Positions 5,415-44,767 of a stretch of 64,000 nucleotides of DNA are shown piece by piece. The notes under the pieces are model-generated. The model ran no database searches. It had not been told where the DNA came from and saw only the letters and a program-made list of their open reading frames with translations. Origin of the DNA: Ostreococcus lucimarinus. Its lineage: Eukaryota. The translations under genes were made by a program, and so were the position numbers. Each line of letters begins with the position of its first letter. The first letter of the stretch is position 1. Location: NCBI GenBank assembly GCA_000092065.1, contig CP000594.1; one strand, given 5' to 3'.

Positions 5415-7161
5415 CTACCCTCTGTCCGCGTTCAAATCCCCGTCGTTCTCTATCGGTGCCACCTCGTTTTCGTCCGTCTGTAAAGCCTCGAGCACGGCCC
5501 TTCGTTCCATCTCTACGTCGTGATCGATGGTAAATGTAATGCAGGCCAAAATAACGCCACACACAAACCAAAAGGTAAACGCCACGTTGAACGCCACTCG
5601 TCTGCCCATGCTCACGATGAGCAAGGCGACCAGCGCGGGTCCACCGCCTTTACCGACGTCGTCAATTTGTGAGTAAAATGCAAACATACTTCCACGAGTT
5701 TCCGGCGGGTTGACATTCAACAAAATTGCGCGCACATTGGGCGGTGTCACCGAGCAGAAAACGCCGCCGACGAGGCACGACAGGTACAAACCGACCCTCC
5801 CCGGACCGTAGTCGTTGACGTTGAGATAGTAATACGCTGGAAGTGCTCCAATAGCGGTCGTCAGTCCCATTAAAATCGGAAGTTCGCTCTTCTTCTTATT
5901 GTACATCCTCTGACCGATGAATCCTCCCCCAATGGTGCCGAAGGCGGAGCCCAAGCCGAAGACGGTGATGGCCGCCGTGGCGTTTTGCACCGTCATACCC
6001 TTTTGCTTATGTAAAAAGTCGACAAAGTACGAATTGAACACCCCCCACGGCACCGTGCCCGGCAAGCCTTGCGCAAGCACGAGGATGTTGGTCTTCACAA
6101 GCAATTGCTTCTTGACCTTGCTCCAATTCATCTTGGCTTTATACGAAACATCTCCCGCTTCGTCGCCGCTTTCGAGCTCGTCCTCCGTCTGCGCCGTCGT
6201 TTGTTCGTCGGAATCATCCCGCTCAGCGACATTTTTCGTTGAATTCCTTCGCATCGTCATTCGATGAACTTCTTCCTCCTGAGCGCCACGCTTGGGCTCG
6301 TCGACGACGAGAACCATCACCGTTGCGAGCACGACCGCGGGCGCGGATGTGAGGATGAACGGTAGTCGCCACCCGTACGCCGGCCCTACCGTACCCGCCA
6401 CCACTTGTCCGAGCGCCACTCCCGCTCCCGTCGCGATCGTCAAAAAACTCGCCACGTAACTCCGCTCATGACTCGCAAACAAATCTCCGCACCAACGAGA
6501 ACAAACAGCGGTAAAGCATCCGCCCACCGCGATGCCCTGGTCATCGCGCCGAAGCGCAAACAACTGCCAATAACTCGGTCACCCAATACGTCGCCATGCA
6601 CGGCCCTTCACCGATCAGTGTCGTCCAAAAGAACAAACGCACTCGACGCACTCGATCGGCGTAGTACCCGATGATCAGCGACGCCGGCGAGCCGACGACG
6701 AAAAACGCCAGCTGGAGCAACCCGCCCAGCTTGACATCCTTCTCTTTTTCATCCATCCCGAACTCCTCCGCTATGGCGCTCATGTTCGGCCCGATGAGGT
6801 TTTGATCGGCGTACAGGAACAGAGAAGTGGCCGTGATCAACCCGACGACGCCGTAGCGCTTCCATCGCTCGCGTCGCGCAAGTCTACGCCGTTGAAAACT
6901 CACGGAAGATGATGTCCCCGCCGCTGGGATAGCTTCGCCTTCGCGAGGCGCTCGGGACGCGTCGGAGGACTCAGAGGGCATGAAACTTCGCGCGCGCGTT
7001 AAAAGCGATACGATGCACGAACCGCGGCGCGCGCACCGTCGCGCGCGGGCGCGCGCCGATGTACGGCTCGCGCGCGGGCTGGGACGCTCAACAACTCTTT
7101 CGGGACGAGCGCGCGCGCGGCGAAATACACAACACATCATATTTATTGCACTAAGTTTCAT
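5415..7161 (-). CDS. MFS-type transporter (paralogue A of the gene at 44768..46261). As given, the reading frame is broken near 6565-6575
   Basis: Two ORF-track pieces (6541..7161 and 5415..6563, minus) together align along the full length of the intact paralogue at 44768..46261. Shared motifs: YADQNLIGPNMSAIAEEFGM...KLGG, GIAVGG, YGWRLPF, VPWGVFNSYF, LLNVNPPETRGS. They join only if one T is removed from gagttattgg near 6570. Confidence 0.8.
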
Positions 7162-7191: not shown

Positions 7192-8037
7192 TTATTGACG
7201 ACCTCCTGAGCGCTGCAAAGCGGCGAGTTTCGCTTTAGTCGCCACGAGTTCGCGGCGGAGCGCGGCGTTTTCCTCTTCGAGCGCTCGCATCGCGCTCTCG
7301 CGCTTTTCGCGACTTCTCGCCGCGCTCTCGCGGTTACGGAACAGCCGCTCTTGCATGCGGAGCGCTTTCTCGGCTTCGGTCTCTTTCGGGGCGCCTTTCG
7401 GCTTCCGTCCCATCTTGAGCGGGGCGATGGCTTGTCGAAACGCCGGAGGCGTGGCGATGCCGCTGCGCTTCTTCAACCGCTTGGGTTCGTAGGACACGCC
7501 CGGAACGGTGGGAACTATCATCATCGACACCCGGGACGGCGCACTCCCCGTCGTTTTCGTCGTCGTCGTTTTCTTCACCGCGGTCGCCCTCCCGTTCGTC
7601 GCCCTCTTCGCCTTCGCCTTCGCCGTCTTCCCCGCCGTCACCGTCGCCGTCGTCGTCGCCGCTTCATCCCCCCCGGCGTCCGCCAGCGCCAGCGCCGTCG
7701 TCAACTGCATGAAATTCATCGTCGGCAGGCTCGGCAGGCTCGGCAGGCTCGGCTCGCGTCCCCGCGCCGTCCCGCTCGCGCCGCTCGAATTAATCTTCGC
7801 CCACACGTCTCCCATGCTCTGCCGTCCCGCCTCGTCCGGCAATCGATCGAATATTTTCGCGTCGATCGTCGACGCCTGTCGCGCCACCGCCGTCGCCACC
7901 TCGCGCATCGTCGCCGTCGCCGCGTCCGCGCCTCGTCCGAGCGCGTCCAGCGTCAGCCCGAGCGCGGGGTCGTCCGCGTGCGCGCTCAGCGTCGGGACGA
8001 GCTCGCGCGCCCATTTACGCAGCGAATCATCGCGCAT
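7192..8037 (-). CDS. bZIP transcription factor
   Basis: C-terminal basic region plus leucine zipper: KALRMQERLFRNRESAARSREKRESAMRALEEENAALRRELVATKAKLAALQ (N-x7-R basic motif, heptad Leu). Real coding probably begins at the ATG at 8037 (MRDDSLRKWAREL) or 8094. The ORF-track extension to 8487 overlaps the divergent neighbour and is GC-rich read-through. TAA at 7192. Confidence 0.7.
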   Translation of the reverse strand: MRDDSLRKWARELVPTLSAHADDPALGLTLDALGRGADAATATMREVATAVARQASTIDAKIFDRLPDEAGRQSMGDVWAKINSSGASGTARGREPSLPSLPSLPTMNFMQLTTALALADAGGDEAATTTATVTAGKTAKAKAKRATNGRATAVKKTTTTKTTGSAPSRVSMMIVPTVPGVSYEPKRLKKRSGIATPPAFRQAIAPLKMGRKPKGAPKETEAEKALRMQERLFRNRESAARSREKRESAMRALEEENAALRRELVATKAKLAALQRSGGRQ

Positions 8038-8144
8038 CACCGCGTCGTCACCGTCGTCCGTCGTCGCGTCGCGTCGCGTCGCCGCGCGCGGCATCGCGTC
8101 GCGTCGTGCCGCGTCGCCGCGCCGATCGACCGGTCGCGCGCGTC

Positions 8145-8166
8145 GATATCGCCACGTGGCGATATC
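8145..8166. promoter_or_regulatory. Perfect 22-bp palindrome GATATCGCCACGTGGCGATATC centred on a CACGTG G-box/E-box, in the bidirectional promoter between the bZIP gene and the coiled-coil gene
   Basis: Seen directly; the reverse complement is identical. It sits about 110 bp upstream of the bZIP ATG (8037) and about 285 bp upstream of the divergent gene ATG (8452). Confidence 0.4.
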
Positions 8167-8451
8167 TGGATATTCGACGAGTCCCGACCCGTCGATCGAG
8201 CCCAGATCCGATCGCGCGGGTGCCGACCGACGCCGCCGCGCGCGACGGCGACGGTTCGCGCGCGACGGTATTTTTGGACGGCGCGCGACGGCGCGCGACG
8301 GCGCGCGCGCGCAGAGCGCGGCGCGCGACGCGCGGGCGAACGCGCGCGACGGTGCCGGCGACGCGCGCGGCGACGCGCGGTCGGCGCGCGACGGCGCGCG
8401 CGAGGAAACGGACGCGCGAGGACGCGACGGTTCGTCTCGCGCGCGGACGCG

Positions 8452-10842
8452 ATGGGAGGCGCGCGCGACGACGACGTCGCGACGCACGCGGAGCGGGCGC
8501 GACGGGAGGCGCGAGCGATCGAACGGCGAGCGACGCGGTTGGAGCGACGCGCGGAGGCGCTGCGGGCGCGGCGAAAGGCGCTCGGGACGGAGGCGCGGGA
8601 GGAGGACGTGGCGGCGGCGCGGTGCGCGGCGGAGGCGGAGCGCGAGGAGGCGAGGATTCGAGCGCGCGGGCGCGGTGAGACGGTGGAATCGCTGCGGGAG
8701 AAGCGAGACGCGGTGATGAGGACGCTAGAGGAGGCGAGACGGCACGAGGCCGAGCGGTTGGCGCCGATGGTGGTGAGCGCGCGGGAGGAGTGCGAGATGT
8801 TGCGCGAGGAAATCGAGGGATGCGGGAAGCGCGCCGAGGCGCTGACGGGGAGCAGAGACGAGCGCGAACGACGCGCGTGCGAGGTCGAACGCGCGTGCGC
8901 GAGCGTGCGAGAGGCACTGAAAATCGAGCGAGAGAGATTAAAGTGTGAGAAAGCGGTGTTGGGGAAAATACGAGCTGAAAAAGACGCACTGTTTGAGACG
9001 TTGACGCGCGCTCGAGCCGACGCGGCGACGCTCGAAACCCGCGCGGAGACGCTTCGATGCGCAGAAACCGATGCAGAGACGTCGGTGCGACGCAACGAGC
9101 AAGAATTGAGCGAACACGTGAGTAAGAACGCGAAGTTTGACGAGCAGCTGTCGACCGCGGAGAGAGGTTTAAACGATCTCAAGGCGCTCTTGGAGCGGGA
9201 ATCGTTGGCGCGAGACGAAATCGCCGCCGAGGGCGTGCGCCGCGAGCTCGATCGACGCGCGTGTCAGAAGTCTTTGACTCGAGCCAAGCAGACGTCGCTT
9301 CGTGAGACGCGTGCAAACGCACATCTTACGTATCTCGTGAACGAAATGTTGACGAACGCACGCTCGATTGCCGACATTGTCGAGGACGTCGAAGGGACAA
9401 AGGCTGCGCTCGAACGTGAGCTCGCCACGGCGGTTCGCGACACCAAGCGTACCATAGAAGAGCAAAACGCGCTCAGACTCGACGTGAACGAGCGTAGGGA
9501 AGAGTGCAAGGTAGAAATCACCAAAGGAGATTTGCTTGCGCACACCGTGACAGTCACCGTGCGCCAAGAAATAGCAGATTTAGAAGATGAGGTAAAATGT
9601 CTTCGTCGCGAGGAGGCGGCGAGAAATCGAATACAAAAGTACGTCGCCGACAGGGTCTCGCGCGCGATGAAGCGTCACCAAGGCGTGCAGCAAAACATAG
9701 CACAACTAAAATCGCTATTGCGTATCCGCGATGCGGAGATGATGGATGTGAAGTCAAATATCGACGACGCGCGAGAGCGCCGCTCGCACTTTGAACGCCT
9801 GCGAGAATTGACGACGACGCAACGCGACGCGTTCGCGACGATCGTGAGAAAATCTGGCGTCATCGCCGGAGCTACTCGAGAAAAGAATGAATGTTTACAT
9901 TTGAAAACGTTCGAGCTCGAGCGTCAAGCGCAAGAGAAAGATTGGGAAGTTTCCGCGGCGCGCGGAGAGACAGATGCGAAGAAGCGCGAGAGGGATGCGC
10001 GCCGAAATCAAAACGACGCCGTCTCGCACGTCATCTTGCGCGCCAGAGCGGACATGGAGGTGAGTGAAACCGAACTCGGAAAACTACAAAACGAGCTCAA
10101 GGCCGGGAAGTGCGATCAAGAGCTTTTATTCGAGCAATCAAAGGCGCTTGTGAAATCACGTCAGGCAGTCGCCATGGAGTTGCTCGACCGAAACGACGAG
10201 TTGTGTCAACTGTGCGATCGTATCGCCACGTCCGAAGACGTCAGCCGGCAGTGCGAAGAAGAGCTCGCGCTGCGTGTACATGAATATGAAACACTACGCC
10301 GTCAAGTACACGACCTAGAGCGTTCCCTGATCGTCGCGCGGCGAAACGTCGCCGCCATACCGCGCTACCAAGCCGAGATTTCGAGCAAGCGCTCGACGCT
10401 ATACGAGATGCGCGTCTCGGCGGAGAATCTGAGTCAGCGATTGGAAGATCCGAACGAGCACACGCGGTGGCGATTAATTCATGGTCCGAAGGGTGAGCAA
10501 GAAAACGACGTTGACGTGGACGTTTTCAACGATAAGCTTGCGAGCGTGGGATCGAGAATTCAAGATCAAGAGCGCGAGCTCGCGAGGCGTCGACTGAGAT
10601 GTCAAGACATCGATCGAGAGATTGAACGTTTGCGAGCGGTCATCGCCGAAAATGCAGACGAAGCGATCGAAACTGCGTCGTCGCTCAATCGAGCGAAATC
10701 CAAGCTCTCGGCCGTCGAGCGAGCGCTCCTCGCCGCGGTGTCCGAACTCACCATGTATCGAGCGCTCACCGCCGCGCTCGCCGACGCAAAATCGCGAAAC
10801 ATCGCCGAGATCGATGCCTTACGCTTGAGTTTAGAGACGTAA
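8452..10842 (+). CDS. Long coiled-coil protein (about 797 aa), possibly an axonemal/ciliary coiled-coil protein (CCDC39/40 or CFAP58-like). Family assignment is tentative
   Basis: Continuous heptad-rich sequence (E/R/K/L/A-rich; many ExLxxLxxE segments). Composition is lower GC than surroundings from about 9200 onward, and it ends with TAA. Only the part from the ATG at 8452 is taken as coding. The ORF-track extension back to 7351 is antisense to the bZIP gene. Confidence 0.55.
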   Translation: MGGARDDDVATHAERARREARAIERRATRLERRAEALRARRKALGTEAREEDVAAARCAAEAEREEARIRARGRGETVESLREKRDAVMRTLEEARRHEAERLAPMVVSAREECEMLREEIEGCGKRAEALTGSRDERERRACEVERACASVREALKIERERLKCEKAVLGKIRAEKDALFETLTRARADAATLETRAETLRCAETDAETSVRRNEQELSEHVSKNAKFDEQLSTAERGLNDLKALLERESLARDEIAAEGVRRELDRRACQKSLTRAKQTSLRETRANAHLTYLVNEMLTNARSIADIVEDVEGTKAALERELATAVRDTKRTIEEQNALRLDVNERREECKVEITKGDLLAHTVTVTVRQEIADLEDEVKCLRREEAARNRIQKYVADRVSRAMKRHQGVQQNIAQLKSLLRIRDAEMMDVKSNIDDARERRSHFERLRELTTTQRDAFATIVRKSGVIAGATREKNECLHLKTFELERQAQEKDWEVSAARGETDAKKRERDARRNQNDAVSHVILRARADMEVSETELGKLQNELKAGKCDQELLFEQSKALVKSRQAVAMELLDRNDELCQLCDRIATSEDVSRQCEEELALRVHEYETLRRQVHDLERSLIVARRNVAAIPRYQAEISSKRSTLYEMRVSAENLSQRLEDPNEHTRWRLIHGPKGEQENDVDVDVFNDKLASVGSRIQDQERELARRRLRCQDIDREIERLRAVIAENADEAIETASSLNRAKSKLSAVERALLAAVSELTMYRALTAALADAKSRNIAEIDALRLSLET

Positions 10843-15552: not shown

Positions 15553-17238
15553 CTATTCGTCGACGAGCGGAAGCGCGTCTCTCGAACGGATGGCTGGAAG
15601 CATAGCCGGAATCAAGTTCAGGTAATCTTCCAACAGTCCTGTCGTGGTGATGAACTGCCACGTGAAGAAGGCCATGACGAGTGATACGAAAAGCGTGGCG
15701 ACGAAAGCGCGCTCGCGGAAACCCGAACGCCGGATCATAGCGATCGTCGTTGCCATGACGGGATGAATCGTCATTCTGAAGTAGAACATCGGATAGAAAA
15801 CGACGAGCGCGACGGAGTACACGGCCAAGTGTCTCAAGTACTGACGACGCTGTGACCCAGACATTTGCTGCCACGTAAGACCTCGCCACGAGCCCGCTAA
15901 AGCTCGTCGCGGCGGTCTTGGAACGAAAGGTTCATGCTTGCACTTGACGCAGTGACACTTACCACCCACGATGCAACGAGGCAAGATGTGGGGCGAAAAC
16001 TTTTCATGCAGCTTTTCGATGCCATCGTCGTCCGCTTGGTAAATCAAAATGCGTCCCTTTGTGCTACTACTCACGACCTCGAGTAATATTTGCAACGCAC
16101 GTCTCATGAGCCACCACACATTGATGCAATGCACCTCGCACGCCAGCTCCGGGTAGTTGGCGTCGAGCGTCACGAGAGTCGTGGCGACGAGGGAAATCGG
16201 AAGCGAAGTCAAATCGATACCCGAGCAATCGACGAGCGCCACCAAACGACCTCGCATGACACCATTTGACTTCTTCAACCGCATCCACTCCTGCTCGGCG
16301 TGCGTCATCACCGCGGCAACGACTTCGTCCAAGCCTTCCATGCCCACTGCGTCCATGGCGGCTCGAAGTCTCAGCACGAGTTGATAACCGCCGCTCCAGC
16401 TTTGCTTCGGACCGTGAATGTATACCACGTTCTCAAACTGCTTCAGCTTGGCGTCGGTCAAGAACTCATACCTTCTGCGCCATTGCAACGATCGTTCCAC
16501 GGCTTGCGCCGCGGCGGACGTGTGCTTCCACTGTAACAAGAAAGCCGCGAGTTGGGTGTCGGTGAACTTGGCTCTCGCGGTCGGCGAGAGTTTATTTTTC
16601 AAAGCGTGAATCTCGTATTCGCGGGGAATTAACAGTGCGTTCCCGTATCCAGTATCTGTCGCCACCACACCAGTGTACACGGCGGCTGGCAGTCGATGTA
16701 ATCTATTCATTCCGCCCTTGACCCAACCGACGGGGCGCAGCAGCGCGTGCCTTTGCCTATGGCTTTCGGCGTACTCTCTCGATTGATTGATGCTCTCGTC
16801 GTCGCTCTCTTCATCGCTACCTATGTCTTCGTCACTGGCGTACTCTCCGTTCGTCCCCGTTCCCGATCCACGTCGACGCCTTCGTCTGTTCCTAGCCCCC
16901 GTGAATCGCGCGATGGTGCTCAGCTGTCCCTCCGCGTGCCGCATCGCGTACAGCACGTCCCTCGGCAACGTCTCCTCCAAAACCTCCCACGCCTCGTTCA
17001 CCGCCGCCCTATACGAACTCACCTCATTCTTCACCTTATTCTTCGCCAACAACTTCCCCAACCGCTTCGCGTGTCGCTGCAGCTTTATCCGCACCGCCGG
17101 AATCTTGCACACGCGCGCCGCCATTTTCGCAAACTTCCGCACGAAACATTTATACGGCGCCGACGCCGCGACGAGCAGCGCCACGCGTCCCGTGATCGTC
17201 GGCAGCGGCTTACTCGACGCCAGCCCCTTCGTCATCGT
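15553..17238 (-). CDS. CRAL-TRIO (Sec14-like) lipid-binding domain protein with C-terminal transmembrane segment(s)
   Basis: Central region KLKQFENVVYIHGPKQ...GYQLVLRLRAAM...RLVALVDCSGIDLTSLPISLVATTLVTLDANYPELACEVHCINVWWLMRRALQILLEVVSS...GRILIY resembles the CRAL-TRIO fold. Two hydrophobic helices near the C-terminus. The start is uncertain: the track ORF runs to 17619, but the N-terminal 130 aa are Ala/Arg-rich. Confidence 0.45.
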   Translation of the reverse strand, partial: TMTKGLASSKPLPTITGRVALLVAASAPYKCFVRKFAKMAARVCKIPAVRIKLQRHAKRLGKLLAKNKVKNEVSSYRAAVNEAWEVLEETLPRDVLYAMRHAEGQLSTIARFTGARNRRRRRRGSGTGTNGEYASDEDIGSDEESDDESINQSREYAESHRQRHALLRPVGWVKGGMNRLHRLPAAVYTGVVATDTGYGNALLIPREYEIHALKNKLSPTARAKFTDTQLAAFLLQWKHTSAAAQAVERSLQWRRRYEFLTDAKLKQFENVVYIHGPKQSWSGGYQLVLRLRAAMDAVGMEGLDEVVAAVMTHAEQEWMRLKKSNGVMRGRLVALVDCSGIDLTSLPISLVATTLVTLDANYPELACEVHCINVWWLMRRALQILLEVVSSSTKGRILIYQADDDGIEKLHEKFSPHILPRCIVGGKCHCVKCKHEPFVPRPPRRALAGSWRGLTWQQMSGSQRRQYLRHLAVYSVALVVFYPMFYFRMTIHPVMATTIAMIRRSGFRERAFVATLFVSLVMAFFTWQFITTTGLLEDYLNLIPAMLPAIRSRDALPLVDE

Positions 17239-17766
17239 CGCCAACGCCTTGACGACGAGCGTTTCGATCCTTCGTCTTCGCGTCCCGACCGCGTTCGCCT
17301 TTAAAAATCCCAACGTTCGTCGTCCGCGGTGGTTGACGCGATACATCTCTCCCGCGCACACGCACGCCGCGACCAGCGGGCCGCGTCGTCGTCGGGCTTT
17401 GCGCAGCCAGACGACTCGCGCGGCGTAGCTCGCGAACTGCGCCGTGGGCGTCGTCGCGCGGTACAATTCGCGCGCGACCGCCGCCGTGGACGCCGTCGCG
17501 AGCGCGACGGCACCGCGACCGAGCGGGCGCGTCGTCGCGCGCGCGACGACGCGAACGGCGACCTCAGCGGTAGCACCATCGTCCGCGCGCGTCGACGACG
17601 CGCCGGACGACGGCGTCATGACGCGCGTCGACGACTGACGCGGCGCGCGCCGAACGCGCCGCGCGGCGACGCCGCGAGCGACGAACGACGCGCCGCGAGA
17701 TCACGCGAAACGACGCCGCGATAACGCTACGACGAATACATCGAATAAATAGACGCGCCTACGAAT

Positions 17767-27282: not shown

Positions 27283-27660
27283 CGCGCGTCACGCGTTCGT
27301 CGCGCGCGCCGTCGCCGTCGCGCGCGCCGTCGTCGTCGCGCTCTGCCGCCGCGCGCGCCGATCGACCCACCGATCGATTCGTTTTCAATCGAACCTCGAG
27401 CGAGGTTCGCTCGCGCGCGCTCGATCGACGATCGTCGATCGACTCCGGGGCGTCGAACGCGGCCTCGCGGGGGCAGAGCGCGACGACGCCGCGCGCGCGA
27501 TCCGTCTCTTTGCGACGCGCGAAAGCCGACGCTCTTTCGAGATGCCGACGAGGTGCGGGCGATGAAACGGCGAGCGATGCGATGCGTTCGATCGGGCGCG
27601 ACGTCGCGGCGCGCGCGCGGTCGCGCGCGCGACGGGAGGGGCGAACGCGGCGTGGACGCG

Positions 27661-44033: not shown

Positions 44034-44767
44034 CCGCCGTCCCGCGGCTGCAATACCAAACTTCACAACGTACCCTCACACCCCCGCGCGCGCGGCGCCG
44101 TGCGATCAGCGATGCTCTCGACGCGCGCGCGAGCGGCGCCGCCCTCCTTCGCGCGCGTCTCGAGCCGCTCGCGTCGCGCTCGCGTCCCCGCGGCGTCGCC
44201 GCGCGCCGTCGAGTTCGGCGCGCGGGACATCGCTTCCCTTCCTCGCGTCGCCGCGTCGTTCGCATCCGCCGGAAAACTAAAGTCGCCGGCGCCCCAGCGC
44301 GCGTCTCGCGACGTCAAAGCCCGCGGCGTGCCCGTTCTCTCGTCGCTTCCGCTCGTCGGCTGGGCGTTTTCGTCCCCAGTCGTGCTCGTGGTCTACGTTT
44401 TCGTCGCGATTAGGATGTATCTCGGCTACGACAGGACCACGTTCGGAAGCGGCGTGCCCAAGATCGCCATGTGCGGCCTGTGGCCCGTCTTGGCCGCGCT
44501 ATCGGCGTCGTTTCGCGAGAATTTAAAGCGCTCTTTGTAAGACTTGAGGATTTGAATGCGCCCGGGACAGGCGTCAGAACGCGACGCGACGTCGCGTCGT
44601 CGCGCGCGCGTCGTCGGACCCGCGCGCGCGCTCGAAGGCGGAAAAGACTCGCGCGCGCGATCGCGCGCGCTCGAACTCGCGCGAATCGCGACGCGCGCGT
44701 CGATAGGCGCGCGTGAACGTCGACGCGCGGTGACAGTTGCGTCGAGTAAATCGCCGCGCGGCGGCGC

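Follow-up and report, generated by a model that had tools for sequence, protein, structure and literature searches.

The closest described counterparts of the element analyzed here are the G-box and ABRE-type elements of plants, which are recognized by bZIP dimers of the GBF, HY5 and ABF/ABI5 types. In light-responsive units of the rbcS type, the G-box is paired with flanking GATA/I-box motifs. The ACGT cores bound by bZIP proteins comprise both G-boxes and C/G hybrids, and HY5 of Arabidopsis binds its own promoter, in the form in which this work (Abbas 2014; Binkert 2014) is cited in bioRxiv 10.1101/2020.02.10.942334; the same preprint also proposes autoregulation for CrHY5 of Chlamydomonas. 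ABRE-type binding prefers GC flanks (bioRxiv 10.1101/128371). The cis-regulatory elements of Mamiellales picoalgae are poorly charted. Conserved intergenic motifs are said to have been obtained by phylogenetic footprinting of Ostreococcus in Piganeau et al. 2009 (J Mol Evol 69:249; cited in PMC2850359) and, like the element described below, these are short conserved words in the diverged spacers of O. tauri and O. lucimarinus. This pair of species is mismatched in the core of the present element, so that a two-species footprint may have missed it, although an earlier listing there is possible; among the papers searched, none linked a G-box to an Ostreococcus gene, and Monnier 2010 (PMC2850359) contains no motif analysis. 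The complement of candidate binders is small, with 8 bZIPs in O. tauri, including HY5-like (group H) and G+J-like genes (PMC2492810), and fewer than five bHLH proteins in chlorophytes (PMC2839125). Other O. tauri genes have been named HY5 orthologues in a study that does not discuss the G-box of the bZIP gene considered here (De los Reyes 2017; PMC5508029).

The element is located at 8145-8166 of a 64-kb window (the whole stretch of O. lucimarinus DNA that was analyzed, 64,000 nucleotides), where GATATCGCCACGTGGCGATATC forms a perfect, gapless 22-bp palindrome with CACGTG at its centre (8153-8158). The perfect 22-bp inverted repeat on CACGTG described in the initial annotation is thus present exactly, and it is unique: GATATCGCCACGTGGCGATATC has a single match in the window, even with 3 mismatches tolerated, and no match in 100 dinucleotide-preserving shuffles of the window. 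There are 3 perfect palindromes of at least 22 bp in the window compared to 0.095 expected from 200 dinucleotide-preserving shuffles; the other two, at 17528-17553 (26 bp; CGCGTCGTCGCGCGCGCGACGACGCG) and 27421-27442 (22 bp; TCGATCGACGATCGTCGATCGA), are CG/CGAT low-complexity repeats, and the one at 8145-8166 is the sole long palindrome of complex sequence among the three. A 20-bp perfect palindrome at 44651-44670 (GCGCGCGCGATCGCGCGCGC) is also of low complexity, and palindromes of 12-22 bp are, in the window as a whole, ~2-30 times more common than in dinucleotide shuffles. Within the 22-bp form, which is that of the reference strain and 2 of the 21 wild contigs, a 20-bp palindrome (8146-8165; ATATCGCCACGTGGCGATAT) is common to all O. 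lucimarinus-type contigs, and the palindromic G-box core (8151-8160; GCCACGTGGC) is identical in 7 lineages that span 39-99% bZIP identity. The core contains CACGTG with the central ACGT, GC flanks and ACGTGGC half-sites on both strands (8151-8160). A third GATAT-type repeat, GGATATTC (8168-8175, plus strand), which is species-specific, immediately follows the palindrome on its distal side.

This sequence shares with the plant G-box and ABRE-type elements the hexamer, the ACGT core, the GC flanks, the two-fold symmetry and the position near a gene start, and a natural C/G-hybrid variant, TGACGTGG, occurs in one Ostreococcus lineage. Unlike these elements, the putative site belongs to a prasinophyte picoalga and is set in a 20-22 bp palindrome with AT-rich arms, and its O. 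tauri counterpart has a CACGCG core that is not expected to suit land-plant G-box binders. Similarly to rbcS-type units, GATATC hexamers are found on both sides of the G-box, with the third GATAT copy adjoining; however, GATATC is not the I-box GATAAG, and the arms are confined to O. lucimarinus except for one arm in the L027 clade, so that such a module would not be ancestral. Altogether, the element can be considered a well-supported but ordinary, conventional candidate for a promoter element that resembles the HY5-type arrangement of land plants.

The palindrome lies in a divergent intergenic spacer of 357 bp (8095-8451) that separates a bZIP gene (7192-8094, minus strand) from a gene for a 796-aa protein (8452-10842, plus strand). 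The 300-aa product of the bZIP gene, translated from the annotated ATG at 8094, is an exact match to the deposited O. lucimarinus CCE9901 protein ABO99706.1/ABO99736.1; together with a neighboring CRAL-TRIO protein, which is ABO99738.1, this assigns the window to the CCE9901 reference genome. From the ATG at 8094, it is 51 bp to the near edge of the palindrome and 61 bp to its centre (51-72 bp for the whole span). The distance of about 110 bp that had been given initially holds for the second in-frame ATG, at 8037, which matches the start used by most other lineages (M..(D/E)SLxxWA); similarly, the shared promoter, originally put at 415 bp, measures 357 bp between the ATG at 8094 and the ATG at 8452. 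The identification of the downstream gene as a bZIP gene holds up, given the presence of the domain, the Pfam assignments of the orthologues (PF00170/PF07716) and the invariant basic region. The domain spans residues 242-295 (7210-7371, minus strand), with the basic region ERLFRNRESAARSREKR. It displays the N-x7-R pattern followed by leucine heptads: N254 and R262 are part of ERLFRNRESAARSRE, which is invariant in 21 aligned bZIP homologues, and the heptads fall at L272-L279-T286-L293, where the orthologues have L instead of T286; the heptad leucines are invariant or nearly so in the same 21 sequences. The window protein itself scores 21.3 bits (E=2.9e-4) against Pfam bZIP_1 (PF00170), for which the curated cut-off is 27.6, and most of the orthologues bear precomputed matches to PF00170/PF07716 (bZIP_1/bZIP_2). 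In a PDB sequence search, the protein showed weak matches to NFIL3/CREB and designed coils alone, and a comparison of the bZIP domain alone with named relatives produced 2 uninformative matches among 14 scored candidates. The encoded basic region, NRESAARSR, is of the ACGT-binding type. The N-x2-SA-x2-SR signature that it contains is shared with the ACGT binders of land plants.

The 796-aa neighbor, which matched no Pfam family in a profile search, is syntenic in most lineages and is absent beside the bZIP gene in the L060 lineage. The spacer is very GC-rich but contains an A/T island (8268-8280; CCAAAAATACC on the minus strand, that is, on the bZIP strand) that O. lucimarinus and the 85% sister clade (L007, about 2870-2885) share without any change; it may serve one or other of the divergent genes as a TATA-like element. 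The half of the spacer nearer to the 796-aa gene (8230-8420) consists of imperfect repeats of GCGCGCGACGG (repeat-search families D2 and D5-D10), which are inverted relative to copies located at 7022-7058, downstream of the bZIP gene. Within the bZIP coding sequence, at 7722-7753, there are three perfect tandem copies of TCGGCAGGC that encode an (LPS)n stretch; the orthologues have a single SLPSL(P/S) motif in this position.

The locus was compared with about 60 orthologous loci from metagenomes and O. tauri, which represent 10 lineages with 39-99% protein identity; a protein search, exact-protein look-ups and a metagenome scan with the protein alignment had supplied 66 loci. In each locus, the DNA upstream of the conserved N-terminal bZIP peptide was scanned. 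The order of the 796-aa gene, the bZIP gene and an MFS transporter gene is kept in nearly all of these loci. Read in the orientation of the bZIP gene, the site is gatatcGCCACGTGGCgatatc in the O. lucimarinus reference and in two wild contigs, L064 (Tara) and L065 (bZIP identity ~99-100%; palindrome of 22 bp), gatatcGCCACGTGGCgatatT in the 19 other wild O. lucimarinus contigs (~98-100%; 20 bp), and, in the sister clade (84-85%), gaattcGCCACGTGGCgagatt in L007 (14 bp) and ...GGCggattg in L014 (12 bp). It reads tttctcGCCACGTGGCgccttc in L010 (45%; 12 bp), cattgtGCCACGTGGCgtcttt in L016-22 (44-46%; 10 bp), gaatacGCCACGTGGCgacatg in L023-26 and L046 (40%; 12 bp), aaacacGCCACGTGGCgatatatc in L027-38 (41%; 12 bp) and aatgttGCCACGTGGCacaaac in L039-44 and L049 (39%; 12 bp). 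No palindrome length applies to the three other cases, namely gtGCCACGTGGAca, ~243 bp before the ATG of L048 (46%), TGACGTGGCAcatt, ~90-98 bp before the ATG in L015 and L060 (50%), and aaactcGCCACGCGGCgac, ~30 bp before the ATG in the O. tauri lineage (RCC1115 and three metagenome contigs; ~39-51%).

The core, GCCACGTGGC, is found at the orthologous position, just upstream of the bZIP start, in 7 of the 10 lineages, within spacers that are otherwise unalignable between clades. The remaining three lineages have one-base or half-site variants: GCCACGTGGa in one lineage, the C/G hybrid TGACGTGGCA in the L015/L060 lineage, and GCCACGCGGC in all four sequences of the O. tauri lineage. CACGTG is accordingly intact in 8 of the 10 lineages, and 9 of the 10 retain one ACGTGGC half-site or more. 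The GCCACGTGGC pattern occurs once per locus, always in the orthologous place, in 56 of 56 loci (three of these loci are each 22 kb long). In a comparison of k-mers of 9-12 bases over the 500 bp upstream, GCCACGTGGC and its sub-words have the widest distribution (7 of 8 clade representatives), and CG low-complexity words are the sole competitors. By a first-order Markov estimate, the chance of GCCACGTGGC in a 200-bp stretch is 2-4e-4 per lineage, the lineages not being fully independent trials given the common ancestry of orthologous sites. Between O. lucimarinus and the 84-85% sister clade, TCGCCACGTGGCG is invariant, and the distal flank contains a ~140-bp indel and scrambled sequence, so that the G-box is kept while its surroundings diverge. 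Taken together, the k-mer ranking, the unalignable spacers, the scrambled flank in the sister clade and the low Markov chance combined with a single orthologous copy indicate conservation beyond the shared ancestry of a slowly evolving spacer, and purifying selection on the core throughout the divergence of the Ostreococcus lineages appears to be the best explanation. The part of the initial annotation that proposed a G-box-type site for a dimeric factor at the centre is borne out by the retention of the core in orthologous promoters: it would have been undermined by a dispersed repeat or by absence from these promoters, and GCCACGTGGC is present in 7 of the 10 lineages, once per locus. The proposal that the whole 22-bp palindrome is the functional unit is not supported, given that the GATATC arms are lineage-specific and that 19 of the 21 wild conspecific contigs have a palindrome of 20 bp.

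Several local features of the orthologous loci deserve mention. O. tauri, whose orthologous locus is BE221DRAFT_188407, has GCCACGCGGC as a fixed homologue of the G-box (L009, 2529-2566; L061-L063, about 2441-2480). Ahead of this homologue come a second CACGCG (ACCACGCGTC, which includes ACGCGT) and, 17 bp upstream, TAAAAATAAA; in the four contigs of this lineage, the GCCACGCGGC block is constant and the sequence just downstream is variable. In L007 (3180-3260), the ATG equivalent to 8094 of the window is out of frame with the bZIP ORF, probably through a single-base indel in the assembly, and is in frame in the close relative L014; the gene caller stretched the L007 bZIP ORF across the G-box.

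The same loci indicate which of the two divergent genes the element serves. In every case, the distance from the site to the bZIP start is shorter than that to the divergent gene. In L060 (1-2617), the 796-aa gene is missing between a small membrane-protein gene and the bZIP gene, so that the spacer is tail-to-head; the NUDIX and small membrane-protein genes that lie beyond the 796-aa gene in the window are here the upstream neighbors, co-oriented with the bZIP gene. In the L015/L060 lineage, where the divergent neighbor is gone, TGACGTGGCACATT still precedes the bZIP ATG by ~90-98 bp. The element has thus remained with the bZIP gene after the loss of the neighbor, and it is to this gene, not to the divergent one, that it belongs. 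General enrichment of the G-box as a promoter word in the window is ruled out, with 25 copies of CACGTG observed and 22.9 expected, and 21 of the 25 falling into predicted coding sequence on a crude, GC3-based gene map. Within the window, GCCACGTGGC occurs once and CCACGTGG twice. Given the lack of CACGTG enrichment and the mostly coding location of the copies, the site is gene-specific within the window.

We infer that GCCACGTGGC, which in most lineages precedes the start codon by ~30-120 bp (by 243 bp in L048), would act as the proximal-promoter G-box of the bZIP gene, and that a bZIP dimer would bind it, with one monomer on each ACGTGGC half-site, and thereby control transcription of the gene. 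We consider it probable that the element is such a conserved, gene-specific proximal-promoter G-box, bound by a bZIP dimer, although the site could be in the 5' leader instead of upstream of the transcription start. The main competing assignment of the binder is a bHLH or another non-bZIP factor, for example, the single subfamily-IVc-like bHLH-LZ protein of Ostreococcus acting on the CACGTG E-box, in which case the bZIP gene would be tied to the pathway of that factor and not to a bZIP loop. CACGTG, which is intact in 8 of 10 lineages, is indeed also the E-box of class B bHLH proteins, O. tauri has a bHLH of the IVc type, and the CACGCG of O. tauri is an N-box that is bound by some bHLH classes (PMC2839125). 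However, TGACGTGGCA of the L015/L060 lineage is a C/G hybrid of the standard bZIP kind and no longer an E-box; it keeps the bZIP half-site and breaks the CACGTG that a bHLH needs, which favors a bZIP over a bHLH. Furthermore, conservation extends to the GC flanks (GCC...GGC), as is typical of bZIP/ABRE-type recognition (10.1101/128371), the core being GC-flanked like the sites preferred in ABRE-type binding, and bHLH proteins are very few in chlorophytes (PMC2839125). A bHLH reader is thus improbable, and a bZIP dimer remains the preferred candidate.

Which bZIP would bind is a separate question. The gene's own product, acting in positive or negative autoregulation, has roughly one chance in three, and another ACGT-binding bZIP, such as the HY5-like or G-group-like Ostreococcus factors, is at least as likely. 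The arrangement is similar to that of autoregulated HY5, as portrayed in the citing preprint, in that a bZIP gene with an ACGT-type NRESAARSR basic region has a bZIP site of the high-affinity type immediately upstream. It differs from the HY5 loop in that the candidate site shows no co-variation with the protein, and the likeness to HY5 drawn here is one of arrangement. In O. tauri, the core is changed to CACGCG, with the loss of ACGT, and the basic region of the bZIP is unchanged; this lack of co-variation between site and protein does not favor a strict self-recognition loop. With respect to GCCACGCGGC, either the loop is dispensable or altered in O. tauri, or the binder tolerates the change, or else the binder is not an ACGT-dependent bZIP. 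The most far-reaching version, in which the site is the operator of an ancient self-regulating bZIP switch that is kept throughout Ostreococcus and whose arms were symmetrized in O. lucimarinus, by selection or template switching, to tune dimer binding, appears rather unlikely. If correct, it would turn the 20/22-bp palindrome, the C/G hybrid and the CACGCG of O. tauri into an allelic series for the evolution of a minimal autoregulatory loop, within a transcription network that ranks among the simplest in free-living eukaryotes. With a clean, single-copy, conserved G-box and only ~8 bZIPs and <5 bHLHs to consider, the question of which factor reads the G-box is experimentally tractable, all the more so as O. 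tauri is transformable and luciferase reporters are available. The general understanding of G-boxes is unchanged by these observations, the value of which lies in a defined test case and in an example of a short palindrome extended into a long one.

This extension is specific to O. lucimarinus, where the A/T-rich flanks of the core would have become mirror images, so that a 12-14 bp palindrome grew to 20 bp, or to 22 bp in some strains, among them the reference. The palindrome is 10-14 bp long in other lineages and 20 bp in 19 of the 21 wild O. lucimarinus contigs; the 22-bp form is limited to the reference and two wild contigs (L064, L065). Position 8145 is polymorphic, with G in these three sequences and A in 19 of the 21 wild contigs, and the palindrome at the species level is therefore the 20-bp one. 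As judged from this distribution, the 22-bp length is a recent, polymorphic extension of the conserved core. The GATATC arms are specific to O. lucimarinus, one of them resembling the GATATATC flank of the L027 clade. A comparison with the sister clade shows three substitutions, at +/-8 and -9, all of which create symmetry. The arms may be neutral, or the product of hairpin-templated mutation seeded by the core, or selected, be it as sites for partners of the GATA or MYB type or for DNA shape. We lean slightly toward the view that the arms beyond ~+/-7 have no function of their own and are of neutral origin, through chance substitutions or a quasi-palindrome template switch from the 12-14 bp core; this view covers the 22-bp extent alone and not the core. 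It agrees with the shorter palindromes in all other lineages and the coexistence of 20 and 22 bp within the species, with the symmetry-making substitutions at +/-8 and -9, which template switching would be expected to produce, and with the outermost pair being a segregating polymorphism. However, the four extra complementary pairs would arise by chance with a probability of ~0.005 per lineage, or ~0.05 over 10 lineages (from base composition, ~0.26 per pair), which is mildly unlikely for chance alone; in addition, A/T-rich flanks are common to all lineages, and the GATA/GATAT motifs, with their third copy at 8168-8175, could serve partners of the GATA or MYB type.

The outermost pair also affects a neighboring word. 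On the bZIP strand, the T-to-C change that completes the 22-bp palindrome turns TTGACG into TCGACG and removes a TGACG motif beside the G-box (8141-8145, minus strand), which reads TCGACG in the window. As a weak observation, read directly from the sequences, wild O. lucimarinus shares TGACG beside the G-box with the 85% sister clade, with O. tauri RCC1115 and with the L039 clade.

The symmetry of the element might alternatively reflect an RNA hairpin that the bZIP mRNA forms in its 5' leader for translational control, or a DNA cruciform, rather than a duplex bound by protein. If transcribed, the palindrome is predicted to adopt a minimum-energy fold in which a 9-bp stem closes an ACGU loop. 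Its distance from the ATG is just 51-72 bp, and in L039 the change at +/-6 is two-sided (T...A for C...G) and preserves pairing, although symmetric changes are equally expected for a homodimer site. However, the conserved part is the central 10-base sequence, including the would-be ACGT loop, and not the pairing of the longer arms, and in the majority of lineages the stem would have 3-5 bp at most. Furthermore, the 96-nt leader folds no better than its shuffles (z = -0.58), and the lineage with the C/G hybrid destroys the pairing yet keeps the ACGTGGC half-site. A hairpin or cruciform is accordingly very unlikely and, with sequence and loop conserved and pairing not, the RNA hairpin was rejected as the main explanation.

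Finally, the sequence reads like a polylinker, with EcoRV, PmlI and EcoRV sites in succession, and a probable problem of sequence quality lies nearby, where 7 extra bases are present at 6493-6578 relative to wild contigs; these features would fit a cloning or assembly artefact, and a dispersed repeat or the end of a mobile element can also be considered. Against all of these, there is one copy in the window and one per locus in 56 loci, in the orthologous position throughout, and the site is found in independent metagenome assemblies from many samples, two of which have the identical 22-mer. Origins of this kind are therefore extremely unlikely: the several non-orthologous copies that mark a dispersed repeat or a mobile-element end were not found in the window or in the 56 loci, the palindrome was absent from the viral contigs in which it was looked for, and an EcoRV-PmlI-EcoRV cloning artefact is ruled out because wild contigs carry the site.

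The 7 extra bases at 6493-6578 occur at six places in ~90 bp, compared to wild contigs with 100% identity elsewhere over 1.6 kb. They break up a 519-aa MFS transporter gene, leaving two ORFs (5415-6563 and 6541-7161), which looks like a low-quality stretch of the reference or a strain-specific pseudogene. The identical bZIP protein (7192-8094) is deposited for CCE9901 under two accessions, ABO99706.1 and ABO99736.1, and a CRAL-TRIO protein (15553-17619) exists in two near-identical versions, ABO99708.1 and ABO99738.1; the version in the window (ABO99738.1) is found on 1 contig and the other on 98. These paired accessions suggest a duplicated segment or redundant gene models on the 708,927-bp chromosome.
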